Source of the DNA: an uncultured Planctomycetia bacterium
GTDB taxonomy: Bacteria; Omnitrophota; Gorgyraeia; CAYWPX01
Direction: 5' to 3'
DNA length: 64,000 nt
Assembly (NCBI GenBank): GCA_964460615.1
Contig: CAYWPX010000005.1
Location: forward strand, 9,524 to 73,523
Of this stretch, positions 3,604 through 59,416 are shown piece after piece. Made by a program: the position numbers and the translations under genes. The first letter of the stretch is position 1, and the number at the start of each line of letters is the position of its first letter. The notes under the pieces were generated by a model. It worked only from the letters and a program-made list of their open reading frames with translations, was not told where the DNA came from and made no database searches.

Positions 3604-3625
3604 ATAGTCAATGACTATTTATTTA

Positions 3626-3658
3626 GCTCATGGCTTCCGCCACAAAGCGTTGGCGGGC
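3626..3658. repeat. Intergenic module GCTCATGG-CTTCCGCCACAAAGCGTTGGCGGGC (CCGCCA/TGGCGG hairpin). Second, diverged copy at 9656-9694
   Basis: Direct comparison of the two intergenic stretches. Both lie 60-150 nt upstream of a + strand start and are followed by a GATAGCTGATGG-type heptamer module. Confidence 0.6.
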
Positions 3659-3808
3659 CCCGAGAAATTGTGAAGCAATTTCCGGGACTAAGTCCTTGGA
3701 ATTTTATTATTTAAAATTCCTAAGGGCAGGGATAGCTGATGGTTATAACGCGCTGCTTGGCACCAGGAATACAATTAAATCAATACAACCTTAACTATAG
3801 GAGGAGAT

Positions 3809-3967
3809 ATGAAAAAGACCAAGGTAATTGGAATATCGTTTTTGATTTTAGCAGTTTATACAATCATAGGCATGATCTTAAATAACGATGCTTTTTGGGC
3901 AGTGTATAACTACATAACTTTGGGTTTATCGATAATTAGCGGGGTTATGCTAGTAAGAGAGAAGTAA
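3809..3967 (+). CDS. Small hypothetical membrane peptide (52 aa)
   Basis: Strong RBS TAGGAGGAG 6 nt upstream of the ATG. Hydrophobic 52-aa product. Not in the ORF track (below 60 aa). Confidence 0.3.
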   Translation: MKKTKVIGISFLILAVYTIIGMILNNDAFWAVYNYITLGLSIISGVMLVREK

Positions 3968-3987
3968 TAAAATAAATCGCCTTATGG

Positions 3988-4542
3988 CTATTGGTTTCTC
4001 CCAGTAGCTTCTTTTAAAGCATTGAGGAATTTAGGATTAACGCTATACCCAAGTTCAATAGCCTTATTTACATCATCCCAGCAGTTATCGTATTGGGCTT
4101 TTCGGAAATAGGCAACGGAACGATCATAATAAAATTGTCCTTTATTGCTGTTGTCAGTTCCAATATTCAATGCCTCGCCAAAATATTTAATCGCCGCGTC
4201 CATATTGTCATTCATAGCATAAGTTAATCCTAAGTCATGATAAACATTAGGATCTTTGGGATTGGCAGCTATTGCTTTATTATAATCTGAGATGGCTTTA
4301 TCAAAATCACCTTTTTTGGCATATGCGGTTGCACGGTTCGCAAGCGCGGTAGAATTATTTGGTTCTATCGCCAGGGCTTTATCGTATTCGCTAATAGCAT
4401 AGTCATAATTTCCTTGCTCATAATAGTCAAACCCTTGGTTAATATACGAGCTAACATCTTGGGCATAAACATTACCATAAATTGCCACAATGCCATAACA
4501 AAAGAATAATGTTTTTATAAAAAATAGTTTATTTCGTTTCAT
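3988..4542 (-). CDS. Secreted TPR-repeat protein
   Basis: Signal peptide, then repeated TPR-like segments (YYEQGNYDYAISEYDKALAIEPNN, AYAKKGDFDKAISDYNKAIAANP). Confidence 0.7.
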   Translation of the reverse strand: MKRNKLFFIKTLFFCYGIVAIYGNVYAQDVSSYINQGFDYYEQGNYDYAISEYDKALAIEPNNSTALANRATAYAKKGDFDKAISDYNKAIAANPKDPNVYHDLGLTYAMNDNMDAAIKYFGEALNIGTDNSNKGQFYYDRSVAYFRKAQYDNCWDDVNKAIELGYSVNPKFLNALKEATGRNQ

Positions 4543-4556
4543 CTAAAATACTCCTC

Positions 4557-5948
4557 TTATTTCCAATATTCTGGATTTAGTGTAGTAAAATCAAATTTTC
4601 CCATTACTTCGGCTTCAGGGGTCATGGGACCATAGTTGACGGACTTCATGTCGTCAGTTATTGAAATAAGCCGTGGAGCCCTTCGGCTAACACTTATTCC
4701 TATAAGCCCCGCTTCAATAATATCACTGGTTGTACTTTTCGCTATTACGAGCCGGTCTCCATCAATAGCTTCGGGATCAATGGTAACGGTTGCGGTATAC
4801 CCACCCATCTTTTTGGCAAGCGTTAATTCTGTGAAATGATAATCAGGGTTTGTGCCATAGCTTTCCACTGACTTTAGATTAAAATCTTTAATCCAAATAA
4901 AAAGTATATCGGTACATTTTCCGGGAGGAAGGAAAGAATGCCTGTCCATTTCATAGTTGCGTCCGGCCATCATCGAATGTGTGAGACTAAAAGGAGCTTT
5001 TTTATCGAGGATCCTTATAATAATATTATCTAGTTTGCGGTTACCATCATATAAATGCAAAACTTTACCTACCGTGGGATTATTATTGCTCTGGCTATTT
5101 GAAATAAACCAGCTGGGGCATTGCCCGAGAGGCTCGTCATAAGCGCTCAACTCATAACCTTTGGCAAAAATACGGTAATAGCCTTGATTTATTATATTAA
5201 TAGTAAAATACCCACCGCCATCTGTCAAAGCTGAATAGGTATGACCATTTCTGATATTTACCGCGAATACCATGGATTTTTTTTGTGAGTTGGATGTTTC
5301 GACTTTACCAGAGATCGTATGAACAGTTTCAGGAGCCCACATGCCACGTAAATCCGCTCGATCCTGTTCGCTAAAGGCAAGGAATTCGTCATCGCTCCAT
5401 GCCTTAGTACCGCAGAGCATTATGGCAGAAGTCGAAGCAGCATGCTCAAGACCCAATGCATGCCCTATCTCATGGATCATAGTATTGTAGGACATTGCAT
5501 AATAACCGTATTCGGTATTTAAAATTACTAAACCTTTTTGATAATCATGGGGGATAGCGCCTGAGTAACTTCCTCCGCCAGAAACCGATTTCCCAGGAAC
5601 AGTTGCCCCTGCCAGCACAACATAGATACAACCATCATTAGGAACTTCACTGATATTACCGTAATTGAAATTTTCAAGACCCTTGAAGACAAACTTTAGC
5701 CCTGTCTCAGGCACCGAACCCCATAATTCAAAAGCCTTTTTTATTTTTTCTACAACAGGTTCGGGCGTGGAAATATTTTTATTTTGTCTTTTATCAAATA
5801 GATTCGAGGATATCTTGTAGTTAATTATCCTAGCGGATTTTGATTGGCCGGAAGGTTTATCGGCATAGGAAGTTACATCTATCAAAAAAAGAAACATTAA
5901 ACTTAAAAGAAAAGCAGTATACCTACTGATCGCATAATCTGATCTCAT
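4557..5948 (-). CDS. Secreted metzincin-type zinc metalloprotease
   Basis: Extended zinc-binding motif HEIGHALGLEH (HExxHxxGxxH) with a downstream Met-turn candidate. N-terminal signal/TM. C-terminal beta-rich region. Confidence 0.7.
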   Translation of the reverse strand: MRSDYAISRYTAFLLSLMFLFLIDVTSYADKPSGQSKSARIINYKISSNLFDKRQNKNISTPEPVVEKIKKAFELWGSVPETGLKFVFKGLENFNYGNISEVPNDGCIYVVLAGATVPGKSVSGGGSYSGAIPHDYQKGLVILNTEYGYYAMSYNTMIHEIGHALGLEHAASTSAIMLCGTKAWSDDEFLAFSEQDRADLRGMWAPETVHTISGKVETSNSQKKSMVFAVNIRNGHTYSALTDGGGYFTINIINQGYYRIFAKGYELSAYDEPLGQCPSWFISNSQSNNNPTVGKVLHLYDGNRKLDNIIIRILDKKAPFSLTHSMMAGRNYEMDRHSFLPPGKCTDILFIWIKDFNLKSVESYGTNPDYHFTELTLAKKMGGYTATVTIDPEAIDGDRLVIAKSTTSDIIEAGLIGISVSRRAPRLISITDDMKSVNYGPMTPEAEVMGKFDFTTLNPEYWK

Positions 5949-6192
5949 AATGCCTCATTGTAATAAAGATTTTCCTTTAACTTATAGAGCAATGAATATA
6001 GTAATATTATAACTAATTTCTTCTTTAAATGCAATAGATGGTATTAAACCATATTTCTAATATCATACATAATATCAATGATCATTTTTTTCTTAAAACG
6101 CATTTTGATTAAATGTGAAATTTCATAGAATAAGGATACCCTATATGCTATAATGAGCTTTATTATCAAAACATCAAGAAAGCAAGTAAAAT

Positions 6193-6648
6193 ATGGTTAA
6201 ATGTTATATATGCGGTCTTGAATATGAAGAAAACCAGGGGGTATCATGCCCGCGTTGCGAGGCAAAACCGTCTGGTTTTAACATGTCAGATCTGTTCAAT
6301 CCAAAAAAAACATCTAAAGATAAACAAAGAAACGCTCTTGTCACAGCTGGCCGCCTTTTAAAAAGAGATATGTATATAGATGGAATAGGTTTTATAAGCG
6401 GTCTTATATTTTTCGGGCTATCAACTTTTGCTGAAATGTTCGCTTTATTAGGGACTGTTTCTTTATACATATGGTTTTTCTGGAGATTATTTGTTGTAAT
6501 AAGGATACGCTACCTTTTGATATTTATGGATAAAAAGAGGGGAACAGTATTTTTCTCTCAATTGCTTGCGTTACTTCTGCCGTTTGGCGAAATATTAATC
6601 GGGATAGATACATTATTCCAATTAAAAGATATGCTAAAAAAAGCCTAG
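6193..6648 (+). CDS. Zinc-ribbon membrane protein
   Basis: N-terminal CxxC...CxxC (CYICGLEYEENQGVSCPRC) then two TM helices. Extended -10 (TGCTATAAT) upstream. Confidence 0.5.
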   Translation: MVKCYICGLEYEENQGVSCPRCEAKPSGFNMSDLFNPKKTSKDKQRNALVTAGRLLKRDMYIDGIGFISGLIFFGLSTFAEMFALLGTVSLYIWFFWRLFVVIRIRYLLIFMDKKRGTVFFSQLLALLLPFGEILIGIDTLFQLKDMLKKA

Positions 6649-6649
6649 A

Positions 6650-6827
6650 TCAGTGGTTATGAGTTATGAGTTGGGAGTAAGAGATTGCTCAAGGGTCTAG
6701 GGGATAGGGTCTAGGGAAGAGAAAAAACGCTTCAGGTTACAAGCTTTTCCTCAGTTTAAACTTCGGGCTACGCAGGTTACAAGAAGAAGGTGTAGAAGAA
6801 CACAAGAACACATGTCACAGGTAAATA
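6650..6827. repeat. Mosaic intergenic repeat, composite part: (GTTATGA)x2, (GGGTCTAGG)x2, GCTTCAGGTTACAAG, CACAAGAACACATGTCACAGG modules
   Basis: Short tandem heptamer/nonamer iterations. Modules shared with the family-A and family-B copies elsewhere. Confidence 0.6.
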
Positions 6828-6946
6828 AGCTCATAGCTCATGGCTCATAGAAAAAGATAAGAGAAGCTTCAGGCCGCAAGCCACAGGCTACAGGTAAAAG
6901 ATTGAACCAAAAACGCCGTACCCCGTACGCCGTACTAAAAAAATAG
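6828..6946. repeat. Intergenic repeat family A, copy 1: (AGCTCAT)x3 - GCTTCAGGCCGCAAG - (CCACAGG,CTACAGG) - (CCGTACN)x3
   Basis: ~90% identical to 16946-17067. Clear 7-nt periodicity. Confidence 0.8.
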
Positions 6947-6976
6947 CTTATACAAAAATAAAAAGAAAGGCAGAAT

Positions 6977-9418
6977 ATGAACATACGAATATTAAAAGAA
7001 AAAAAATCGATTTTTAAGGTTTTAAGTTTAGTTGTTATTTTTTCATTTACACTGATAGTTAAACCGCTTTTAGCCGAAGATGCGGCCACGAACACGGCTT
7101 CTACAAGCAATGACTCTGCAACATCTGCCCCGACTATTGATAAAATAATCGAGACCACGACTTCAACGGAAGACACCGAATATTTACGCTCAGTTTTAAA
7201 AGAAACTTTTGATTCTTTATTATATTACAGGCACCCGGTTACAGGACTGTATTCCCAGAATCCTCAGAGCAACAAGGAGATGTCCAAGTGCGACCATATA
7301 GGTATGGTCTTTGGTTGTATTGCTATCGGCGGTAAAATAGGGCTTATCAGTGACGAAGAAGCTAAGCGCGAACTTGGTAAAGCACTGAGTTCTTTAGAAA
7401 AAGTCCCTACTGCTTCAGGGTTTCCCGCTGAACCGATAAAAGCTTCCGATCCTACAATAGGCTCTTCGGGTTGGGTAGCAGTGGCGGATATGGGGTGGTA
7501 TCCCTGCGGACTGATTGTTGCAGGAGAGGCGTATCCTGAATTTAAGCCACGAATTATGAAACTAATAAACGCTATGGACTGGACCAAGATGTACAACGCC
7601 GAAAAAGGATTCCTAAAAGGCATCTATGCCGTACAAAACGGGGTTTTAAAGGCTGAGGGACTTGATCTCTTGATCGCAAGCGACCAGCGTATGGCGATTT
7701 TTATTTCCATAGCCTCAGGAAAAGTCCCCGCATCAGTATGGGATAGAATGCCGCGCAATTACCTTACCAGATACGGCGAAAAATATTTAAAGCCAGGCGA
7801 AGGCCTCGGCTATGGGGAACAACCCTGGGATATGGGATATTATATAGATGAACGAGGTTCGGAAGTAGGCATGTCCAATGCTAACTTAGCCTGGGTGCAA
7901 ATGCATTACGCTTTGGATATGTGGTATCCGACTTGGGGATGGTCAAACTGTCTTACTCTTGAAAGATATATGGGTTTTGGCGATCCAGATACGTCCTGGT
8001 CATCGATAAATGCCCATGCAATAGCGCCGGCAGTAGTATTTTACCCAAACCAGGTAGTAAAAGCGCTAAAAAAACTGGAAGAACTTGGGAATAGAGAACC
8101 GGTCAGGCCTGATGGAATTACACTAAAAAAATTCGGCTTCAGAGCATCGTATGATGTGGATAAGAAAAAATCTCCTGAGGCGGTTCTTGCGGGCCTGGAC
8201 CAGCCGATGATATTTATGTCACTGGCAAATTACTTATACGACGGAATAATTTGGAAGCTTTTCAAACAAAACGAGATGGTAAGTAACGGCCTAAAATTAA
8301 TTAAGGAATATTCTAACCCCAATGCTGATTACATCAAACTTTATAAATCACGTGATACTAAAGGCCCGTCTATTGAATATAACCCGAAAGAACCCGGAAA
8401 GAAAATTATTGTAGTAGACGATTTTACAAAAAACGGCAACATAAATTCTCTTGGCGCCAATAGAGAACCGACTCTTTGCAGGCTGAACTCAACCAATGGC
8501 ATCGGAGCTCTTGAATTTATTGGAATCGGAAGCAGCCGCGGTTGGTTTATTGAAAAACTTAATGGAGTTAATCTGGTCCATCACCGGCTTCTTAAGCTAT
8601 CTATAAAAGGCAAAACTGAAGGCAAGGTCAAATTATCCCTGCGTATCGGAGGTACGGGAGGGTACAGGATGTTACCTATCACGACCGAGTGGACTGAGTA
8701 TTTGATACCCCTACGCAGTATGCTAGGCGGAACCGGGTACGACTATTCAAAAGAAAATCCTGAATTTCCATGGACAGCTATGTGGTACAACAGGTTTTCC
8801 GGTGAAGAGATCAGGATAGACCAGTTAGAAATGCCTTCTTTTGAACTTAAAGAAATATCCTTTATTGCCGCCACACCCGAAGAGATAGATATAGCCGCAG
8901 CAGCACTTGTTGCCGTCAAACCTACGGTGATAGAGCCTGACGGGACTTTTGACAGAATGGAAAAAATAGCTCTATGGTATGCGATCAGATCAGGACATAA
9001 CTCAAAGGCCGAAATATCTTCTTTGCCGGGCGTAGAAGGTAAAGGTATAGCCCTTAATTTCCAATTTCTGGAAACAGGCGCTGATAACTGGGCTTTAATC
9101 GGCAGAAAAGTCGCTTTTGAATTCCCGGAAAAAATGGATCTGGTTTTCAACATGAAGGTTACCGGAGGCCCGGCAGACCTGGAAGTAAAATTTGTTGATA
9201 ATAGCGGTGCTAACTACAGGATCACTCTGCCGAATAAAATTGTAAGTTCTGATTGGCAGATTGTAAGAGTGCCTATAGATACTATCCCTTACGGATGGGG
9301 CGGCATAGCAAAACCAAGAATTACTGATGCAGTTGAACTTCATTTTGCGGCAGTCTCAAAGTCAATGGTAAGCGGGACTGTTATCTTTGATAATTTGAAA
9401 ATTGAGAAGTCGAAGTAA
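6977..9418 (+). CDS. Large secreted protein (813 aa). Central region possibly an (alpha/alpha)6 glycoside-hydrolase-like (DUF3131/GH144-like) domain, with a C-terminal beta-sandwich CBM-like domain
   Basis: Signal peptide, Thr/Ser-rich linker, Trp/Tyr/Asp-rich central domain, C-terminal beta-rich domain. The family assignment is by recall only. Confidence 0.35.
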   Translation: MNIRILKEKKSIFKVLSLVVIFSFTLIVKPLLAEDAATNTASTSNDSATSAPTIDKIIETTTSTEDTEYLRSVLKETFDSLLYYRHPVTGLYSQNPQSNKEMSKCDHIGMVFGCIAIGGKIGLISDEEAKRELGKALSSLEKVPTASGFPAEPIKASDPTIGSSGWVAVADMGWYPCGLIVAGEAYPEFKPRIMKLINAMDWTKMYNAEKGFLKGIYAVQNGVLKAEGLDLLIASDQRMAIFISIASGKVPASVWDRMPRNYLTRYGEKYLKPGEGLGYGEQPWDMGYYIDERGSEVGMSNANLAWVQMHYALDMWYPTWGWSNCLTLERYMGFGDPDTSWSSINAHAIAPAVVFYPNQVVKALKKLEELGNREPVRPDGITLKKFGFRASYDVDKKKSPEAVLAGLDQPMIFMSLANYLYDGIIWKLFKQNEMVSNGLKLIKEYSNPNADYIKLYKSRDTKGPSIEYNPKEPGKKIIVVDDFTKNGNINSLGANREPTLCRLNSTNGIGALEFIGIGSSRGWFIEKLNGVNLVHHRLLKLSIKGKTEGKVKLSLRIGGTGGYRMLPITTEWTEYLIPLRSMLGGTGYDYSKENPEFPWTAMWYNRFSGEEIRIDQLEMPSFELKEISFIAATPEEIDIAAAALVAVKPTVIEPDGTFDRMEKIALWYAIRSGHNSKAEISSLPGVEGKGIALNFQFLETGADNWALIGRKVAFEFPEKMDLVFNMKVTGGPADLEVKFVDNSGANYRITLPNKIVSSDWQIVRVPIDTIPYGWGGIAKPRITDAVELHFAAVSKSMVSGTVIFDNLKIEKSK

Positions 9419-9448
9419 GAAATAGTTCATAGACATTGGAGCGCCAAG

Positions 9449-9582
9449 ACACAACGTCACAAGTTTAAAGAAGAAGAATTTGCTTGTGCTCTTGTGTCAT
9501 TGTGCTCATGTGTCAATAAATGCTGGTAACTGGTGCTCTGGCGATTGGTGCACTGGTAACAGCAATACCGGTACCCTGATGA
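9449..9582. repeat. Intergenic repeat family B, diverged copy 3
   Basis: Shares GTCACAAGTTTAAAG...GCTTGTGCTCTTGTG...ACAGCAATACCGGTACCCTG with the copies at 10984 and 13153. Confidence 0.6.
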
Positions 9583-9750
9583 CTTGCGTAGCCCCGAGGT
9601 TTCAACCAAAGGATAGCTGGTTCACTTTTTACGCTGAATGCTGATGACTAAAAACTTCCACCACAAACCGTTGGCGGGCGGGCATAGCTGATAGTTGGGG
9701 GTTCTAACTAAATAACATTTCCTATATTATTTATACAACAGGAGAAAGAA

Positions 9751-10968
9751 ATGAATATGAAAAATAAATTTATTGGAAATATAGTATTTGTCTTTTTATC
9801 AGTTCTTATAATTTTTATTTGCTCTGGATGTGCTACTTTGAGACATCCGGTCCCATCTAATATGATCGGCAAGGCTCATGTAGATAATATGTCGGATATA
9901 CGGACATTCTACGGTGATAGGGGTTCCGAACTGGCGAAGAATGCATTGCTGTCTTTCAAGGAAGAAAATATAACTGATTACCCTGTAAACTCCGATGGTA
10001 AGCGCGTCTATCCGCTGCTCTGCATATCCGGGGGCTCGGCAAATGGAGCATATGGGGCAGGATTATTAAATGGATGGTCAAAAGAAGGCTCAAGGCCCAA
10101 ATTTAAAGCCATTACCGGGGTATCCACCGGAGCTATAATAGCTCCTCTTGTATTCCTCGGCGAAGAATACGACGATATGGTAGAAAATCTTTATACAACT
10201 ATGGCGACAAAACAAGTAATGACTCTAAAAGGCCCTCTTAGGGCTCTCTTCGGAAATTCCCTTGCAAGCAACAAACCCTTAGAAAAACAGCTCGATAAAT
10301 ACATCACTGACGACATATTAAAAAAGATCGCAGATGAACATAAGCGCGGCCGAAGGCTATATGTGGGCACAACATACCTGGACGCGCAAAGATTTGTAAT
10401 ATGGGACATGGGCGCAATTGCCTTAAGAGGCGATGCGAAATTATTCCGAAAAGTTATTTTGGCTTCTGCTGCAATACCAATGGTATTCCCGCCTGTATTT
10501 ATTAAAGTGGAGGATAAAGGCAAAATATACGATGAGATGCACGTAGATGGCGGAACATTGATGCAGGCTTTCTCACTCTACAAAATATTTGAAGGGGAGG
10601 AAGAGAACGCCAAAAAAATGGGTATTGATCCGGAAAAGATAAAAGCAGATTACTACATTATAAGAAACGGATATTTTGACCCAAGCTATAAAGTCGTTGA
10701 TGATGAATTGGCTTCAATAGGAGGGCAAACGTTCGATACAATGATAAATTCTCAGGGCATTGGCGATGCTTACAGAATATATGCATTCATGCAACGAAGA
10801 GGCAATACTTATAACCTAGCGTTTATACCCGGAGATTTCAGGCCTCCCAAAAAAGAGGAATTTGACCCAAGCCAGATGAAAATGCTTTTTGATAAGGGAT
10901 ATGAGGACGCTGTTAACGGATATAAATGGAGCAATGTTCCGCCGGGGTTGGATATCAATAGGGAATAG
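9751..10968 (+). CDS. Patatin-like phospholipase lipoprotein
   Basis: Lipobox ICSGC, oxyanion-hole GGSANGAYGAG, nucleophile motif GVSTG (GxSxG), and a DGG Asp dyad motif further downstream. Confidence 0.75.
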   Translation: MNMKNKFIGNIVFVFLSVLIIFICSGCATLRHPVPSNMIGKAHVDNMSDIRTFYGDRGSELAKNALLSFKEENITDYPVNSDGKRVYPLLCISGGSANGAYGAGLLNGWSKEGSRPKFKAITGVSTGAIIAPLVFLGEEYDDMVENLYTTMATKQVMTLKGPLRALFGNSLASNKPLEKQLDKYITDDILKKIADEHKRGRRLYVGTTYLDAQRFVIWDMGAIALRGDAKLFRKVILASAAIPMVFPPVFIKVEDKGKIYDEMHVDGGTLMQAFSLYKIFEGEEENAKKMGIDPEKIKADYYIIRNGYFDPSYKVVDDELASIGGQTFDTMINSQGIGDAYRIYAFMQRRGNTYNLAFIPGDFRPPKKEEFDPSQMKMLFDKGYEDAVNGYKWSNVPPGLDINRE

Positions 10969-10983
10969 AATTACAGCCTCAGG

Positions 10984-11103
10984 CCTGCCAGCAAAGCTGG
11001 GGAGGTTACAAGAAGAAAGGGCAAAAGAGCACAAGAACACACGTCACCAGTTTAAAGCTTTTGCTGGTGCTCTGGTGACAGCAATACCGGTACTCTGGTG
11101 ATC
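10984..11103. repeat. Intergenic repeat family B, copy 1 (CCAGCAAAGCTGG palindrome; GTCACCAG-TTTAAAGCTTTTG-CTGGTGCTCTGGTGAC nested hairpin)
   Basis: Direct repeat of 13153-13309 (~80% identity). Nested inverted repeats read directly. Confidence 0.8.
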
Positions 11104-11130
11104 ATTGTACTCTTCTAGTTGCAAATTAAC

Positions 11131-11230
11131 TGATAGCTGAAACCTGCCTGCCAGCAGGCAGGGCTGATGGCTGATAGCTCATAGTAAAAAAACAAATAGC
11201 GATTAGCCAATTGGGCGAATAGGCGATTAG
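11131..11230. repeat. Intergenic module: CTGATAGCTGA - perfect palindrome CCTGCCTGCCAGCAGGCAGG - GCTGATGGCTGATAGCTCATAG - GCGATTAG x2 around the CCAATTGG palindrome
   Basis: Read directly. Shares AGCTGAT-type heptamers with the family-A tail. Confidence 0.6.
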
Positions 11231-11258
11231 GTAAAAATTTAAAAGGAATAAGAAAAGC

Positions 11259-12395
11259 GTGAAGCAAATAATTATAATTATCATAATCCTCGGTTCAATA
11301 GTAATGGCAATCCCCAGGCTCATTGAACCTATTATTGCGATTCAGACAAAAAAAGAACTAGAAAAAGTTTTTACACAAAGCAAAGTATCGGTCGGAAAAT
11401 GCATTTTCCGACCCACAAAATCTATCGCGCTTCAGGATATTTCAATAAATAAAAAAGGTTCTTACGATATCCATGTGAAAACCGCTGCGGTTCAGTATAA
11501 ACTTTCTACAATTTTCAGGCCGGGAGCCTTAAGGTTGTCTCTAAATGACGCAGCAATAAATGTACATACCCCGAAGGAAAATATTAATAAGTTAGCCCGC
11601 AATATTAGTCTTAAAGTAGGAAAATCCCCTCTATTCGGATACTTAACACTATCAGGCTTAAAAGTAGATATAAGCACAAAAGACCTTACTATTAAAGGTA
11701 CCGTGTCAGCGGGAGTCCGTCTTAGAAGGCAAACCATAGATACAATGGAAGTTAAAACGGACATCTTCAAGATGCAGGGAGTTGAGCTTAGCAATATATT
11801 CCTTAAGACAGATTCGGCTGAACCCCAAGGGGATTTTGGAATTGCAAAGATAAAATATAACGACCTCAATATCTACGACATGAACGGAAAGATCAAGTTG
11901 CAGGGCAAGGAGATAATATTTTCTGATTTTTCAGCTAATTCCCTGGGAGGCAAGATAGGCGGTAACCTTAACATTAAAATTGACAAGGAAGTGGTATATC
12001 TGCTTAATCTTATATGCACAGATATTGATATACAAAAATTAGTTACAGATTTCAAATTAAAAGAAAAATTTGATATGACCGGGTTAATTAATGGCGGCCT
12101 AAATCTTAAAGGTAATGGCATTAACATAGAATTACTATCCGGAGGTTTCTCGGTAGTACCTCCTGGAGGCATAATGTCTATAAAGGATACAAAATTTCTT
12201 GAGAACATGGCCAAATCGACTGACCAGCCGGTTGAATTAATAGTAGAAAGTTTTAGGAATTACAAGTATAATACAGGTATGATAGTACTTAGCTTTAAGG
12301 AGAACGATGTACTTCTTGATATGAATCTTGACGGCAACGCCGGCAAAAGAACTCTAAATGTAATAATGCATAATTTTAACAGTATTGTCCCATAA
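11259..12395 (+). CDS. AsmA/YdbH-like envelope protein
   Basis: N-terminal hydrophobic anchor. C-terminal Gly/Asn-rich beta-repeat region (GGKIGGNLNIKID, GGLNLKGNGINIE) resembling the AsmA-like C-terminal domain. Start is ambiguous: GTG at 11259 versus ATG at 11305. Confidence 0.45.
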   Translation: MKQIIIIIIILGSIVMAIPRLIEPIIAIQTKKELEKVFTQSKVSVGKCIFRPTKSIALQDISINKKGSYDIHVKTAAVQYKLSTIFRPGALRLSLNDAAINVHTPKENINKLARNISLKVGKSPLFGYLTLSGLKVDISTKDLTIKGTVSAGVRLRRQTIDTMEVKTDIFKMQGVELSNIFLKTDSAEPQGDFGIAKIKYNDLNIYDMNGKIKLQGKEIIFSDFSANSLGGKIGGNLNIKIDKEVVYLLNLICTDIDIQKLVTDFKLKEKFDMTGLINGGLNLKGNGINIELLSGGFSVVPPGGIMSIKDTKFLENMAKSTDQPVELIVESFRNYKYNTGMIVLSFKENDVLLDMNLDGNAGKRTLNVIMHNFNSIVP

Positions 12396-12551
12396 GCCCT
12401 AAATGAATTTTACCGGCAGCTTTACCGGAATAATTGAAGATAATAACATTAGATAATACCCGGCCGCTTCTAAATGGTCGCAGCCCTTGGTATTAATTCC
12501 TTCGACGTCGCTTTGAAAGTGCAAGTCGGAGCCATTAAGGAGAAATTTGTT

Positions 12552-13121
12552 ATGAAAAAAATCTTTACTTTATTAGCAGTGGCAATTTTTACTTTTGGGT
12601 GCGCCAGGGTAAGCTTGCAGGCACCCAAAGAACCCATAAAACTCGACATCTCCATGCGCCTTGATATCTACCAGCATGTCGAAAAGGATATCGACGCAAT
12701 TGAAGATTTGGTCTCCGGAGGAGGAGCAGCCGATAAGGTTGCAGCTCCGGATAAACAAAGTTTTCTGAACTCTTTTGTTTCAATCGCTTACGCAGAAGAT
12801 GGATTAAGCCCTGAGGTAGAAGAAGCCGCCTTAAGACGTAAATCAAGGCTTGGAGAGTTACGCTCATTAGAAACAAGTGGAGCTATTGGTGAAAGCAATA
12901 TGGGTTTAGTTGAGATAAGAGACTCTTCAAAAGCTGAAGGTTCTATTAATGAACTTATTAGAATGGAAAATAGCGACCGAATGATAATATACCGGTCTGT
13001 TGCTGAAAAAAACGGCACCACAGTTGAAGATGTGCAAAAAATATACGGTAAAAGACTCCAGAACGACGCACCTAGCGGAACCCCGATTGAAACCGATTCA
13101 GGGGAATGGAGCGTGAAATAA
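12552..13121 (+). CDS. YdbL-like lipoprotein (DUF1318)
   Basis: AAGGAG RBS and lipobox TFGCA. C-terminal region (IIYRSVAEKNGTTVEDVQKIYGKRL...GEW) resembles the YdbL/DUF1318 family, which in E. coli follows ydbH (AsmA-like). Confidence 0.5.
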   Translation: MKKIFTLLAVAIFTFGCARVSLQAPKEPIKLDISMRLDIYQHVEKDIDAIEDLVSGGGAADKVAAPDKQSFLNSFVSIAYAEDGLSPEVEEAALRRKSRLGELRSLETSGAIGESNMGLVEIRDSSKAEGSINELIRMENSDRMIIYRSVAEKNGTTVEDVQKIYGKRLQNDAPSGTPIETDSGEWSVK

Positions 13122-13152
13122 CGCCACATGCCACAAGCGCCAGGTCACAGGT

Positions 13153-13309
13153 CTGCCAGCAAAGCTGGCGAGGTTACAAGAAAAAAGTACGAAGGAACAC
13201 AAGAGCACACGTTACCAGTTTAAAGCTTTTACTTGTGTTCTTGTGACTTATGCTCTGGCAACAGCAATACTTGTGCTCTGGAAACATCAATACTTGTACT
13301 CTGGTGATC
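13153..13309. repeat. Intergenic repeat family B, copy 2 (internal duplication of the ACAGCAATAC-TTGTRCTCTGG unit)
   Basis: Alignment by eye with 10984-11103. Confidence 0.8.
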
Positions 13310-13362
13310 TGTGTAAGCCTGATTGAAGAGTACGATTGACAGAACAAAAAAAGGAGGAAATA

Positions 13363-13575
13363 ATGGCAAAATACGCACTATCAAGAAGAAAAGCGATCAG
13401 CCGCGCTCAGATGGGCAAAAATAATTCCTTTTATGGCAGAAAACATTCCAAAGAAACTCTTAAAAAGCTTTCCGCCGCCACCAAAGGAAAAAATAATCCC
13501 ATGTTCGGCAAACACCATTCCGTTGCGGCAAAACGAAAAATGAGACTTGCCAGACTACGAACAATTGGGAAATAG
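13363..13575 (+). CDS. Stand-alone protein with two NUMOD3 DNA-binding repeats (70 aa)
   Basis: Two tandem motifs, GKNNSFYGRKHSKETLKKLSAATKG and GKNNPMFGKHHSVAAKRKM, matching the NUMOD3 module of GIY-YIG/HNH homing endonucleases. No nuclease domain. AGGAGG RBS puts the start at 13363. Confidence 0.55.
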   Translation: MAKYALSRRKAISRAQMGKNNSFYGRKHSKETLKKLSAATKGKNNPMFGKHHSVAAKRKMRLARLRTIGK

Positions 13576-13611
13576 TCATATAATTTTGTTTGTGCAATAA
13601 AGGGCCGTTTA

Positions 13612-14622
13612 ATGGTTAAAACTAAGATAATAGCTACTCTCGGGCCGGCGTCATCTCGTGAAACAACGATAAGAAAAATGATGCTTGCCGGGATGGATGT
13701 TGTTAGATTTAATTTTTCTCACGCTAACACGGATGAACTACTGAGCAGGATCAGCATTATCAATAAACTGAACTCAAAATACCACAGGCATATTAGATTC
13801 CTCGGCGACTTACAAGGCCATCGCATACGAATAGGCTCTCTTCATAAGCCAATCCTTCTTATTAAACACAGAATCATATATCTTACTCAAAAAAATATTA
13901 TTGGAACCGATATTTTGGTCCCTTTTGATTATAAAGGACCTCTTGATAGTATTAAAACTGGCCATCACATTTTCATTGATGACGGGAATATCTCTCTTCA
14001 GGTAACAGGCCGGTCAAAAGATAAATTAAAAACAAAGGTAATTGTCGGAGGCCTGCTCAAAGAACATAAAGGCGTAAATATCCCTGATGCAAAACTCAAA
14101 TTCGACGGACTAAACATGAAAGATATCATTGATGCTGGGTTTTGTCAGGCCAATGGCGTAGATTATGTTGCGCAGTCATTTGTGCGGACAAAAAATGACA
14201 TTGACAGAGTTAGGGCGCTTTTTAATGAAGACTCTGGCATTAAAATAATTGCTAAGATCGAAAATAGAGACGGGATCAATAATATAGACAGCATTATTAA
14301 GGCATCCGACGGGATAATGATAGCGAGAGGGGATATGGGGGTATCAATACCTATATATGAAATCCCTATAATTCAAAAAATGATCATCAAAAAATGTAAT
14401 AAGTCGGGCAAATTTGTTATCACTGCCACCCAAATGCTCGAAAGCATGACCGAAAATCTTCGCCCTACACGTGCCGAGGTAACAGATGTAGCCAATGCCA
14501 TAATAGATGGCGCTGACTTTGTTATGCTTTCAGGAGAATCTGCCGTTGGTAAATATCCGTCCGAAACAATCACGATGATGAACAATATAATAAAATATAC
14601 TGAAAAATTTTTAAAACAATAG
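13612..14622 (+). CDS. Pyruvate kinase lacking the C-terminal (allosteric) domain
   Basis: Matches the PK barrel and B domain ([54 protein letters not shown]). Ends where the A domain ends, at 336 aa. Confidence 0.7.
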
Positions 14623-14640
14623 AAGACTTTTAAAAATTAC

Positions 14641-15564
14641 ATGATAAATAAAATATTGGAAAAATTTTCGCGCCTTCTGGTTTTATGGGTAATATTAGCA
14701 GCTGGGATAGGATATATATATCCATATGTACTTACACCGCTCAAACCCTTTACTGACTGGCTATTTGCCTTTACCATGTTTGGTATAGGATGTCTCCTAT
14801 CGACAAAAGATTTTAAGCCTATAATTGAAAAACCAAAACTAATTTTTCTTGGTACTGCGGCACAATTTATTATAATGCCTATTTTGGCTTTTCTTATAAT
14901 AAAGTTTTTAAACGTCCCGCCGGTTTTGGCGATCGGACTTATATTAGCAGCGGCAGTCCCTGATGCTATGGCTGCGGGAGTAATGTCGTACCTGGCTGAA
15001 GCGGATGTGGCGTTTTCAGTAGCACTCACTACGGCTACCACTCTAATTTCACCAATCGTTACACCGGCTTTAACATACTTCTTAGGTAGGGAATACATAC
15101 CCATACAATTCTGGCCGATGGTATTAAGCATAATGCAGATGGTAATAATACCTCTTTTATTAGGGTTGTGGGTACAGCATAGATTCCATAAGATAACCTC
15201 AAAAATTAAGCCTGTTTTTCCGGCAATATCGACACTTTTTATCGCTTTTATCTGCGGCTTAGTTGTCGCGCTTAATAAAATGACCCTTAGCAGGATAACA
15301 ATAGTTATTTTTATAGCAGTTGTTCTCTTGAATATTTTTGGACTTATTTTAGGTTACTTGACAGGAAAGGGTTTTGGATTTAATCTTGCCCAGCGCAGGA
15401 CGCTTGCTATAAATGTAGGCATGCAAAATGCGGGCATGGGGGCGGTACTTGCCATAAAACACATATCAAGCGAAGCTGCAATACCAAATGCGCTTTTTGC
15501 AACTTGGTGTATCATTTCTGCTGCCATACTGGCAGAAATTTGGAGCGCCAAAAAACATATATAA
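14641..15564 (+). CDS. Bile acid:sodium symporter (BASS) family transporter
   Basis: Polytopic 307-aa protein with BASS-like organisation. Confidence 0.6.
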   Translation: MINKILEKFSRLLVLWVILAAGIGYIYPYVLTPLKPFTDWLFAFTMFGIGCLLSTKDFKPIIEKPKLIFLGTAAQFIIMPILAFLIIKFLNVPPVLAIGLILAAAVPDAMAAGVMSYLAEADVAFSVALTTATTLISPIVTPALTYFLGREYIPIQFWPMVLSIMQMVIIPLLLGLWVQHRFHKITSKIKPVFPAISTLFIAFICGLVVALNKMTLSRITIVIFIAVVLLNIFGLILGYLTGKGFGFNLAQRRTLAINVGMQNAGMGAVLAIKHISSEAAIPNALFATWCIISAAILAEIWSAKKHI

Positions 15565-15566
15565 AT

Positions 15567-15884
15567 ATGGGACCAATTAAATATTTTCATAATAAATTTA
15601 GATCTGCATCAAAACCAGTCAGATGGGGAATGATCGGAGCCATGATACTGCCGCTTTTTTATATAGTTCCTATGGTCATATCGCATTACCCCGACTTTGT
15701 CATCAATGTATTAGGACCATTTGGAATTATTATCTGGCTGATCCAGTGGATTTCATTTATTATCGGAGGATGGGCGTTTGCTATTGCTTCAACCATAATA
15801 TTTTTTATTTTATCGGGATATGTGTTTGGTTTTTTAATAGCTGTTTTTTTGTCTAAAAAGGGGAGAGAATATCGAGTCTTTTAA
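15567..15884 (+). CDS. Small hypothetical membrane protein
   Basis: ATG 2 nt after the BASS stop. Three predicted TM helices. Confidence 0.35.
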   Translation: MGPIKYFHNKFRSASKPVRWGMIGAMILPLFYIVPMVISHYPDFVINVLGPFGIIIWLIQWISFIIGGWAFAIASTIIFFILSGYVFGFLIAVFLSKKGREYRVF

Positions 15885-15900
15885 AAAATAACTAAAATCT

Positions 15901-16188
15901 ATGAAGAAAAAAAGTGTCCTCCAATTAACAATATTCTTTAATTTGCTTTTAAGCTTAATTATCGGGATATGCGGATTAGTCCATAGCCCCGAAGACTCAA
16001 CTAAAGGCATTGATATCGTACCTGATACTACAGTTACAGTGCTCAGAAAACTAGAGGCCTTCTTTACTGGAAATTTAGAATGGACCATGTCACCTGAGAT
16101 AAAACCAAATAAAGACGACTATACGCTTGACCCATTGGGCCGTGAGATACCGCGTTCTACACTTAATAACATCACCCAGGAAGATTAA
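15901..16188 (+). CDS. Small secreted hypothetical protein
   Basis: Signal-anchor N-terminus. No motif recognised. Confidence 0.35.
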   Translation: MKKKSVLQLTIFFNLLLSLIIGICGLVHSPEDSTKGIDIVPDTTVTVLRKLEAFFTGNLEWTMSPEIKPNKDDYTLDPLGREIPRSTLNNITQED

Positions 16189-16206
16189 AAAACTTTAGGA
16201 GCAACT

Positions 16207-16665
16207 ATGATAAAAAGGGATTCAACTCTACGAAATAATATTTTACAACTACTTAATAGCCAGAAATTAGGAGTTTTGGCTACTCAAAGCGAAATGTACC
16301 CGCATACTTCTTTGGTGGCCTATGCTTTTACAAAGGATCTTAAATTTATTATTTTTGCCACATTAAAAAATTCCAGAAAATTTAAAAATATTGAAAATCA
16401 TCCTGAAGTTTCAATATTAATCGATAACAGAAAAAACCGGACATCAGATTTTAAAAATGCCGTGGCTTTGACCGCAACCGGTATTGCTCTGAGGCCGTCT
16501 AAACTCCAAAATATTAGATACAGGTACCTTTACTTAAAATCCTTTCCTGATCTAAGGGGTTTTATTAACGATCCGGATTCTATGATAATCCCGCTGAAAG
16601 TAGATAAATATACTTACGTACAACAATTTCAAGAAGTTGCAGAACTTAAAATTAACAAAATATAA
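16207..16665 (+). CDS. Pyridoxamine 5'-phosphate oxidase-like FMN-binding protein
   Basis: PNPOx-like split-barrel pattern (QKLGVLATQSEMYPHTSLVAYAF...ILIDNRKN). Confidence 0.55.
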   Translation: MIKRDSTLRNNILQLLNSQKLGVLATQSEMYPHTSLVAYAFTKDLKFIIFATLKNSRKFKNIENHPEVSILIDNRKNRTSDFKNAVALTATGIALRPSKLQNIRYRYLYLKSFPDLRGFINDPDSMIIPLKVDKYTYVQQFQEVAELKINKI

Positions 16666-16676
16666 AGAGAATAAAT

Positions 16677-16940
16677 ATGATGAAAAAAAATATTATGAAC
16701 AATGAACGCGGAGGAGCCTTTACGCTATTAGGACTTTTATTAGCATTGGCTATTATATGTTTTTTAATTATTAAAATGTTTTCGGGTTATACCGCGAGTG
16801 AATCCCTTGATAAAGAAACAAAAAAATCATTATCCAAAGAAGGTATAAATTTAGAAGGCCCCAAAAAGATCTTGGATAGCACCAGAGATATCATTAAGCA
16901 ATCTAATAAAAGCACTCAGAAAATAGAAGAAGTTAAGTAA
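16677..16940 (+). CDS. Small membrane-anchored hypothetical protein
   Basis: One TM helix, Lys-rich tail. Confidence 0.35.
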   Translation: MMKKNIMNNERGGAFTLLGLLLALAIICFLIIKMFSGYTASESLDKETKKSLSKEGINLEGPKKILDSTRDIIKQSNKSTQKIEEVK

Positions 16941-16945
16941 AACTT

Positions 16946-17097
16946 AGCTCATGGCTCATGGCTCATAGAAAAAGATAGGAGAAGCTTCAGGCCGCAAGTC
17001 ACAGGCTACAGGTAAAAGATTGGACCAAAAACGCCGTACTCCGTACGCCGTACTAAAAGAAAAATAGCTGATGGCTGAAAGCTGATAGCTGGTAGCT
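16946..17097. repeat. Intergenic repeat family A, copy 2, with a heptamer tail (AGCTGAT,GGCTGAA,AGCTGAT,AGCTGGT)
   Basis: Near-identical to 6828-6946. The tail module recurs at 3728, 9683 and 11133-11175. Confidence 0.8.
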
Positions 17098-17119
17098 AAT
17101 ACAGTCAACGCATAATATT

Positions 17120-58765: not shown

Positions 58766-58862
58766 AAATATAAGGGTGTTTATATGTGTAATACCTGCGG
58801 ATGTCAGGGCAAAAAACCCCCAAAGAAATAAGCAATTTTATAAAATTCAAAAAAATTTTTAA

Positions 58863-58902
58863 GGGCAGGATATATAAATTATATTCTGCCTTTTATTTTT
58901 TT
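58863..58902. terminator. Bidirectional rho-independent terminator
   Basis: GGGCAGGATATA-aatt-ATATTCTGCC followed by TTTTATTTTTTT on + and by a T-run on -. Sits between the + DUF2934 unit and a small - strand ORF. Confidence 0.55.
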
Positions 58903-59020
58903 AAAGCCACCACCATGGGGTCAGGATCGGAATAGCGTTTGGGATAGGTATTGAAGCGCATCCGGAAACACCTAGAAGACAGGCCAAAATAACAATTATT
59001 AATAACATTCTTTTATTCAT
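58901..59020 (-). CDS. Small lipoprotein-like peptide (39 aa, MNKRMLLIIVILACLLGVSGCAS...PWWWL)
   Basis: ORF below the 60-aa track cutoff. Signal peptide plus lipobox (LGVSGC). Ends in the bidirectional terminator. Confidence 0.25.
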   Translation of the reverse strand: MNKRMLLIIVILACLLGVSGCASIPIPNAIPILTPWWWL

Positions 59021-59344
59021 ATTGCTATTATATACTAAACAACAAATAATTCAACAAAAAATTAAGGATGGCAACGGTCATTGAAATATTTGTACTGGAA
59101 GAACCAGTTAATTTACCGTGTTTGCCATCCTCAACATAAGTATACATTAGGAATTCAAAAAAATCAAGCCTACCAAGAAAATACAAAATAATCTAATACT
59201 GGGAAGATAACTTTTAAGCAGATAGGGTATATTTTATTTATCCACAGAATAATAAGATTTATCATAACTTATTTAAATTCAATATGTTATGCCATTATTC
59301 TACAATATCGTAGTTTACATAACATATATTATAGGACGTTAATA

Positions 59345-59380
59345 AACTATTATAAAAGGCATCGTCTTTAAGATGCCTCT
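59345..59380 (-). terminator. Terminator hairpin downstream of pckG (minus strand)
   Basis: AGGCATC-gtctttaa-GATGCCT stem, T-rich on the minus strand. Confidence 0.4.
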
Positions 59381-59416
59381 TATAAAATGCTGGCTTTTTG
59401 TGACAAATCCGGTTTT

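Follow-up and report, generated by a model that had tools for sequence, protein, structure and literature searches.

The locus examined here, a 64-kb window of DNA from an uncultured Omnitrophota bacterium (64,000 nucleotides of contig CAYWPX010000005.1), carries six intergenic regions, R1 to R6, that are filled with short repeats, and it raises the question of what kind of element these repeats are, how they arose and whether they serve the genes around them. The original prediction, made from the sequence alone, had described them as a mosaic, GC-enriched family of heptamer-periodic modules. We found that the window repeats belong to the known class of heptanucleotide simple sequence repeats (SSRs), which includes the STRR and long SSR (LSSR) types, and are not a new kind of element. 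In our judgement they are probably heptamer and octamer arrays made by slippage, copied as composites by recombination and lodged in short spacers as mostly tolerated filler.

The GC content of the window is 37.6% and nearly all of its genes lie on the + strand. The six regions are free of open reading frames (ORFs), each lies between + strand genes, and all of their repeat modules fall outside coding sequence (Table 1). Their GC content is 0.41–0.46, compared with 0.19–0.30 in the 12 other true gaps of at least 100 bp. The claim that they are also more GC-rich than the flanking genes (0.31–0.43) was correct in direction, although the margin is slight. A compositional island was rejected as an explanation, as gene GC and GC at third codon positions (GC3) are ordinary within the repeat-bearing stretch.

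Periodicity was measured as the fraction of identical bases at a given lag and compared with dinucleotide-preserving shuffles. Pooled over R1–R6, the lag-7 autocorrelation was 0.380 against 0.260 in the shuffles (z = 10.8), and signals were also obtained at lag 14 (z = 6.3) and lag 8 (z = 4.9), while the other gaps of the window gave no signal at lags 7, 8 and 14 (z = −0.3, 0.0 and 0.1). The 7-nt period thus stands above a shuffled background, and the expectation of six gaps with related modules among ordinary AT-rich spacers was borne out both by the GC contrast and by the absence of periodicity from the other gaps. Specifically, the lag-7 z-score was 8.0 in R2, 3.8 in R3, 4.0 in R4, 2.8 in R5 and 7.2 in R6; R1 showed no 7-nt periodicity (z = 0.5), and the description of all six regions as heptamer-periodic therefore holds for R2–R6 only. 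The lag-8 signal equalled or exceeded the lag-7 signal in R4 (lag 8, z = 5.4) and R5. Tandem Repeats Finder, run on the whole window, returned eight period-7 arrays, seven of them in R2 and R6, as well as several period-8 arrays in R2, R3 and R4 and one period-23 array in R5. All of these tandem tracts are short and imperfect (2.4–5.4 copies, 77–100% matches). The module AACACAA/GAACACA/TGTCACA, which had been listed among the 7-mers, turned out together with several others to be 8-periodic (9483–9515, 9529–9557 and 11199–11231). Lastly, the motif GCTSATRGCTSAT, allowing at most one mismatch, has nine matches in the window where 0.55 would be expected, and all nine are on the + strand and inside R1–R6.

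Table 1 Repeat regions of the window and their component parts (window coordinates)
Region	Position	Strand	Feature
R1	3604–3808	+	Four-hairpin run: 3604–3618, H1 CCGCCA/TGGCGG 3637–3656, ~3659–3687, 3693–3725
R1	3625–3633	+	Single AGCTCATGG unit
R1	3732–3744	+	ATAGCTGATGGTT
Divergent promoter-type gap	5949–6192	.	244 bp, GC 0.23, no repeats; negative control inside the stretch
R2	6649–6976	+	GTTATGA x2.4 at 6656–6672; AGGGTCT x3.6 at 6692–6716
R2	6767–6818	+	Type II element, 5′ half only
R2	6823–6955	+	Type I element: AGCTCAT x3, A-rich spacer, GCTTCAGGCCGCAAGCCACAGGCTACAGGT, CCGTACN x3, one decayed AGCTTAT unit
R3	9419–9750	+	Long hairpin 9426–9520, 3′ arm a CTTGTGYY 8-mer array
R3	9529–9557	+	ACTGGTGC-type 8-mers
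R3	within 9545–9590	+	CAGCAATACCGGTACCCTGATGA unit
R3	9658–9677	+	H1-like hairpin
R3	~9684–9697	+	ATAGCTGATAGTT
R4	10969–11258	+	Type II element 10980–11109, with CAGCAATAC unit after the TG-rich arm
R4	11143–11162	+	Palindrome CCTGCCTGC/GCAGGCAGG
R4	11160–11184	+	GGCTGAT GGCTGAT AGCTCAT
R4	11199–11231	+	GCGATTAG x4
R5	13122–13362	+	Second type II element 13148–13315; 13148–13247 is 86% identical to the R4 copy
R5	13246–13304	+	23-nt unit x2.6, then Shine-Dalgarno (SD) motif
R6	16941–17119	+	Second type I element 16941–17100; 16941–17061 is 93–96% identical to the R2 copy
R6	17064–17101	+	AGCTGAT-type units x5.4, the last of them 18 nt upstream of the DUF1559 ATG

Comparison of the six regions revealed two composite elements. 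The type I element is made of three AGCTCAT units, an A-rich linker, GCTTCAGGCCGCAAGYCACAGGCTACAGGT, a further A-rich linker, three CCGTACN units, a TAAAA..AAAT stretch and a terminal (AGCTGAT)n array, and has the core sequence GCTTCAGGCCGCAAGYCACAGGCTACAGG. Its copies in R2 and R6 are 93–96% identical over 113–121 nt and differ in the terminal array, which holds one decayed unit in R2 compared with about five in R6. The type II element, whose core sequence is CTGCCAGCAAAGCTGGSGAGGTTACAAG, is composed of CTGCCAGCAAAGCTGG, GGTTACAAGAAGAA, a run of CA-rich 8-mers, a TTTAAAGCTTTT loop, a run of TG-rich 8-mers and one or two CAGCAATACYKGTRCTCTGGTGA units; its copies in R4 and R5 are 86% identical over 100 nt. 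A diverged version of type II is found in R3, and in R2 the 5′ half of type II joins type I at an AAGCT microhomology. What R1 and R3 have in common is a CCRCCA-N8-TGGCGG hairpin with ATAGCTGATRGTT after it (25 nt, 92% identity), and R1 belongs to the family solely through this hairpin and one ATAGCTGATGG unit. Pairwise identities reached 95.6% over 113 nt for R2/R6, 93% over 29 nt for R3/R4 and 87% over 45 nt for R2/R4, and a single similarity network links all six regions. With type I, type II and hairpin modules shared between regions in this way, the mosaic of shuffled modules that had been proposed was confirmed. The suggested likeness to repetitive extragenic palindromic sequences and bacterial interspersed mosaic elements (REP/BIME) did not hold as a matter of membership: there is no palindromic unit of ~35 nt and no alternating orientation, all seven high-scoring segment pairs (HSPs) between regions being on the same strand and none inverted.

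The position of the repeats relative to the genes was then considered. In R2–R6 they start about 0–7 nt from the upstream stop codon, and the repeats end 18–75 nt ahead of the next start codon; subtracting them leaves spacers of ~18–65 nt. Unlike the other gaps, the repeat-bearing spacers contain no AT-rich promoter-type stretch. As the spacers are short once the repeats are removed, with no AT-rich stretch left, the repeats are probably insertions or expansions in intercistronic spacers, transcribed in the + sense together with their neighbours. Of the six genes that follow the repeat regions, all have an SD-like motif except DUF1559, downstream of R6. TAGCTGA/TAGCTCA units occur in five regions, always in the forward orientation and 18–75 nt from the start codon, and four of the five genes downstream of them have an SD-like motif; these copies are paralogous and hence not independent. 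The repeats do not fill every gap of the stretch as had been stated, since both the divergent gap and the short intra-operon gaps lack them.

An assembly artefact, raised as a possible objection, was excluded: contig L001 (9,139 bp) from the independent Logan assembly of SRR12487046 is 100% identical to window positions 3691–12829 and so reproduces R2–R4 exactly. The same assembly breaks inside the R1 hairpin (~3654–3691), where contig L307 ends near 3654 and L001 begins at 3691; the far end of L001 (12829) lies within a gene. Neither the remaining ~50 kb of the window nor the adjoining 5.2 kb that Logan contigs cover past its end contained a significant copy of any module, and the repeat family is thus restricted to 3.6–17.1 kb within the ~69 kb seen.

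Related Omnitrophota loci were compared through two of the genes flanked by the repeats, encoding a patatin and an 813-aa glycoamylase-like protein. The sources named for patatin homologues place the lineage in Candidatus Omnitrophota. Only one metagenomic relative of the 813-aa gene was identified (L298, 72% identity); the spacer downstream of it is AT-rich and unremarkable, and the gene beside it is not the same. Four loci with patatin relatives (L299, L302, L303 and L304; 69–73% identity, 74 kb in total) likewise have ordinary, AT-rich spacers and showed no heptamer array of at least three units, no module similarity and no shared gene order. With arrays and modules missing from these relatives, the repeat family appears to be young and lineage-specific. 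In all five of these loci the patatin and 813-aa orthologues have different genes beside them, and both genes seem to sit in variable neighbourhoods across the group.

The modules had also been proposed to act as structured elements of untranslated regions (UTRs). RNA folding gave a z-score of −5.8 for the string of four hairpins in R1, and the long R3 hairpin was strong on both strands (z = −4.4 on the + strand and −4.7 on the − strand), whereas the type I element was unstructured (z = −1.5 and +0.5) and the whole regions folded weakly (z = −0.8 to −2.6) and without strand asymmetry. The proposal can therefore be retained for R1 and the R3 hairpin but not for type I or for the regions as a whole, and a single large structured RNA was dropped from consideration on account of the weak whole-region scores and the lack of strand asymmetry. 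A scan against Rfam 15 gave no match at the gathering threshold, and at E ≤ 1 only the R3 hairpin against MIR156 (E = 0.21), a sub-threshold chance match; tRNA and tmRNA scans returned none, promoter and terminator consensus scans did not rise above shuffles, and no reading frame within the repeats is long enough to serve as a query for further copies. When the − strand is read, the CCGTACN array of each type I copy (6917–6929 and 17035–17047) becomes a CGTACGGNGTACG hairpin with GCGTTTTTGG after it, and the H1-like hairpin of R3 has a G-U closing pair on that strand only, with a T-run after it; these sites are terminator-like and face antisense transcription.

We then turned to other genomes and viral contigs. 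Searches for three consecutive RGCTSAT units returned 116 stretches in IMG/VR and at least 120 (L118 onward) in a one-genome-per-species collection. The genome matches listed come from more than 12 phyla, including Acidobacteriota, Planctomycetota, Omnitrophota, Cyanobacteriota, Chloroflexota, Gemmatimonadota, Bacteroidota, Desulfobacterota, Nitrospirota, Actinomycetota, Pseudomonadota and Patescibacteria, among others. Two scrambled heptamers of equal degeneracy gave 44 and 16 viral stretches, and three CCGTACN units gave 11. As the scrambled controls also form arrays, tandem heptamers are common whatever their sequence, the AGCT(G/C)AT type being only 2.6–7 times commoner than the two controls. 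At least 231 different heptamers were counted among the more than 230 loci fetched, in which, for periods of at least 5, there were 803 period-7 arrays against 53 of period 8, a ratio biased by the selection of these loci for a heptamer array. Exact TAACTGA x3, a pattern 64 times more stringent than RGCTSAT x3, matched 107 viral-contig stretches in IMG/VR (L327 onward). In these viral arrays, starts with an SD motif and ATG lie on the TCAGTTA side in 22 cases compared with three on the TAACTGA side, which is opposite to the orientation described for the TAACTGA repeats of BOGUAY (see below). A search for relatives of type II in IMG/VR with CAGCAATACYKGTRCYCTG gave eight matches, all coding-like and judged to be due to chance.

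Four phage-like contigs (L070 at 6886–14780, L047, L098 and L116) have a heptamer array in nearly every co-directional gap, with units that change from gap to gap; the arrays often begin at or within a few nt of a stop codon and end 8–20 nt before the next start. The arrangement matches that of the window, on a smaller scale. An AGCT(G/C)AT x3 array often has an inverted ATCAGCT array in its vicinity, with which it forms a long hairpin (as in L074, L097 and L098), and ~13% of AGCTSAT arrays have such an inverted partner nearby. A REP-like bias towards gene 3′ ends in the foreign loci, suggested by a first count of 35 convergent against nine divergent gaps, vanished or reversed once the arrays were masked before ORF calling, and the ORF-based gene calls are too crude to argue for or against such a bias.

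Based on these findings, the reading that we favour can be set out as follows. The building blocks are short, partly decayed tandem arrays whose units are of 7 nt (TAGCTGA/TAGCTCA, CCGTACN, AGGGTCT and GTTATGA) or, in some cases, 8 nt, with A-rich linkers and small hairpins connecting them. The arrays change copy number, as is expected of slipped-strand mispairing, an origin already put forward in the original prediction and supported indirectly by the type I paralogues with one and five AGCTGAT units and by near-identical foreign contigs (L055/L056 and L075) that are one unit apart. Composites of 100–130 nt were copied whole from one spacer to another nearby, without any change of orientation. 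The copying probably took place through recombination or gene conversion at shared AGCT-type units, which the mosaic junctions and the local clustering fit. Having lodged in short intercistronic spacers, the composites would be co-transcribed with their neighbours and act mostly as tolerated filler, with any effect being secondary and at the RNA level, a point on which our confidence is low. The hairpin modules of R1, R3 and type II could protect or process mRNA ends, and the TAGCTGA arrays nearest the next gene would supply stop codons in all three frames. Heptamer arrays that also fill the co-directional gaps of L070 and L047 are in line with this account.

Several observations weigh against it. 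Slippage alone explains neither the restriction of the repeats to 13.5 kb of the ~69 kb seen nor the single orientation of all copies. The module nearest the downstream gene is of the TAGCTGA type in four of the six regions (R1, R2, R3 and R6); in R4 the GCGATTAG array lies between. Paralogy could explain both this placement and the uniform orientation. In addition, arrays this short (2.4–5.4 units) and imperfect should slip only at low rates today.

The main rival to slippage-made filler is a post-transcriptional or translational role of the type described by MacGregor, which we regard as unlikely. According to this explanation the arrays, and especially the forward TAGCTGA units ahead of start codons, are a binding platform or standby site for an RNA-binding protein or the 30S subunit, as has been proposed for the TAACTGA repeats of Beggiatoaceae (PMC4679880) and the heptamer repeats of Nostoc (bioRxiv 10.1101/2022.06.06.494920). 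In BOGUAY most TAACTGA repeats lie close upstream of start codons (MacGregor 2015, PMC4679880), and reporter data for recF/recO implicate the Nostoc repeats in expression (bioRxiv 10.1101/2022.06.06.494920). TAGCTGA is one base away from TAACTGA, the two units stand side by side in 5/120 and 6/107 loci compared with 0/60 controls, and all copies in the window are forward-oriented and 18–75 nt from the next start. AGCTSAT arrays in other genomes (213–253), however, show no preference between sense and antisense, with 39 against 45 in co-directional gaps and 32 against 28 at adjacent SD-ATG starts, as far as crude, ORF-based gene calls allow this to be counted, and the absence of an orientation bias would argue against a strand-specific RNA binder for this unit, which also bears on the arrays of protein-binding sites suggested in the original prediction. 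Moreover, all downstream genes but one retain an SD-like motif, in contrast to BOGUAY; the same regions also hold many heptamers and 8-mers of unrelated sequence, and the relatives manage without the repeats.

An improbable but broader proposal is that all TARCTGA arrays represent a single intergenic element that has spread horizontally, perhaps by way of phages, and that genuinely functions where genes meet: it might stop translation in all three frames, serve as a pad for translation re-initiation, or offer a universal microhomology linker through which gene cassettes are exchanged. If so, the Omnitrophota mosaic would represent this element in a local burst, and not slippage debris. Its range would take in TAGCTGA in the window and more than 12 phyla, and TAACTGA in Beggiatoaceae, cyanobacteria, Bacteroidetes and the 107 viral-contig stretches. 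For the spread of TAACTGA the Beggiatoaceae report states 'no mechanism evident' and leaves phage unmentioned (PMC4679880).

Spread as non-autonomous mobile elements, similar to REP/BIME or to miniature inverted-repeat transposable elements (MITEs) and moved by a transposase such as a REP-associated tyrosine transposase (RAYT) encoded elsewhere in the genome, was judged to be quite improbable. The two composites of 100–130 nt, each in two copies of 86–96% identity beside unrelated genes, and their extragenic location between co-directional genes would fit such elements. No terminal inverted repeats or target-site duplications were found at the type I and type II boundaries, however, type I ending instead in direct AGCTSAT arrays; there is no REP-type palindrome and no inverted copy, the copies keep to one 13.5-kb neighbourhood of the ~69 kb seen, and no transposase (including RAYT) or integrase is present among the genes annotated at 150–20728.

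It is very unlikely that the repeats are contingency loci in which SSR copy number tunes the adjacent secreted or envelope proteins, as the 7-bp repeats of Haemophilus influenzae hmw do. Several of the flanked genes do encode secreted or envelope proteins (M10 peptidase, patatin, AsmA-like and DUF1559), and experiments elsewhere provide a precedent for heptamer SSRs in 5′ regions (PMC12721329), but the tracts lack the length and regularity of hypermutable ones, the housekeeping genes for pyruvate kinase and a transporter are flanked as well, and two assemblies of the sample are identical. Finally, besides the artefact already excluded by the identical independent assembly, an integron-like cassette array with the repeats as attC sites has a negligible chance of being correct: the genes are co-directional, functionally unrelated and each followed by a related repeat, and the patatin and 813-aa genes have different neighbours in all relatives, but attC sites are imperfect palindromes with RYYYAAC...GTTRRRY ends, and neither such architecture nor R″-L″...L′-R′ symmetry was seen (no dedicated attC model was run), no integrase is encoded at 150–20728 and the elements are 170–330 bp long.

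The units flanked by the repeats are, in order, a 52-aa membrane ORF; TPR and M10 peptidase genes on the − strand with a 151-aa ORF; the gene for the 813-aa glycoamylase-like protein; the patatin gene; AsmA-like and DUF1318 genes; a group made of a NUMOD3 mini-protein, a pyruvate kinase barrel, an SBF transporter, three small ORFs and a PNPOx gene; and the DUF1559 gene. The label of envelope-gene stretch thus suits the M10 peptidase, patatin, AsmA-like and DUF1559 genes but not those for pyruvate kinase, the SBF transporter and the PNPOx-like protein, and the association of the repeats with envelope genes is weak. The 3′ limit of R5 is set only by the real gene for the NUMOD3 mini-protein (13363–13575, + strand), which follows directly and encodes a free-standing 70-aa protein with two NUMOD3 motifs (Pfam E = 2e-25). 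NUMOD3 is a DNA-binding module of homing endonucleases. As a candidate repeat binder this protein was rejected, since 73-aa homologues elsewhere occur in repeat-free housekeeping contexts, beside aconitase or SWIB. The pyruvate kinase gene (13612–14622, + strand) encodes only 336 aa, with the barrel domain alone (PF00224 positions 3–328 of 328) and no C-terminal PK_C domain detected. Far from the repeats, a convergent gap of 651 bp (58766–59416) contains no ORF of at least 60 aa, and its Rfam matches are sub-threshold only (SdsR_RyeB, E = 0.13).

To the heptamer repeats on record in bacteria the locus adds a compact Omnitrophota case, in which array composites have been copied from spacer to adjacent spacer among co-directional genes, and the surrounding survey shows that the TAGCTGA/TAACTGA unit family recurs across many phyla and viral contigs. 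If there is a function, the window locus and the phage contigs with an array in nearly every gap would be convenient test beds; if there is none, the locus illustrates how the spacers of a compact genome can be lengthened and enriched in GC by slippage and local recombination.

Intergenic heptanucleotide repeats have been on record since 1990. According to Mrazek 2007, as cited in two later reports (PMC4679880 and PMC4692102), heptamers are the most abundant class of long SSR in many bacteria and are over-represented in intergenic DNA, the proposed cause being slippage of DNA polymerase over its ~7-nt contact. Named cases include the cyanobacterial STRR, GGGAATC in Xanthomonas and GGGGAYT in Nostoc (PMC4692102). 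Our findings can be compared with these and related systems in turn. In having short modules in a mosaic between co-directional genes, outside coding sequence, the window repeats resemble the REP/BIME of enterobacteria in manner of working, but they lack the REP palindrome, the alternating orientation and a known RAYT, and their basic unit is a tandem 7- or 8-mer and not a palindrome of ~35 nt. REP/BIME spacers are transcribed, and their hairpins affect mRNA stability. The 7-bp SSRs of H. influenzae hmw1A/hmw2A are similarly placed 5′ of surface-protein genes and act via the 5′ UTR (PMC12721329, PMC8262952), but are long, perfect and hypermutable where the tracts in the window are short and degenerate; together with the Nostoc recF/recO data they are the only experimental hints of heptamer function. 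The heptamer elements of Geobacter, Xanthomonas and Nostoc are likewise multicopy and mostly intergenic. These consist of 4–5 tandem heptamers (elements of four and of five in Geobacter metallireducens, PMC2700814), some in inverted pairs forming hairpins, and vary in length between close relatives; they differ in unit sequence and in having tens of copies genome-wide, and no G-quadruplex potential was seen in the window repeats.

The TAACTGA repeats of marine Beggiatoaceae, some Cyanobacteria and Bacteroidetes (MacGregor 2015, PMC4679880) have a unit similar to that of the window. TAGCTGA is again one base off, runs forward toward the start codon, carries stops in three frames, is intergenic and has a sporadic phylogenetic spread. 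In BOGUAY, however, only a few nt separate the repeats from the start and SD motifs are rare, compared with 18–75 nt and an SD-like motif at five of six genes in the window; the window units are TAGCTGA/TAGCTCA and coexist with many others, while in BOGUAY related heptamers including TAGCTGA form no repeats (PMC4679880). Compared with the STRR of filamentous cyanobacteria and other long SSRs, the window repeats come from Omnitrophota, their arrays are very short and decayed, and these are joined with 8-mers, linkers and hairpins into locally duplicated composites of 100–130 nt. What they have in common is a set of 7-nt tandem intergenic units, several unrelated heptamers per genome and variable copy number. 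Repeats of the STRR type are also dispersed in many copies over the genome; in the ~69 kb seen here the family keeps to 3.6–17.1 kb. Overall, the window repeats, R1 excepted, consist of tandem 7-nt units beyond chance, and the family lies in non-coding DNA and has changed copy number between paralogues, all of which are features of repeats of the STRR type.

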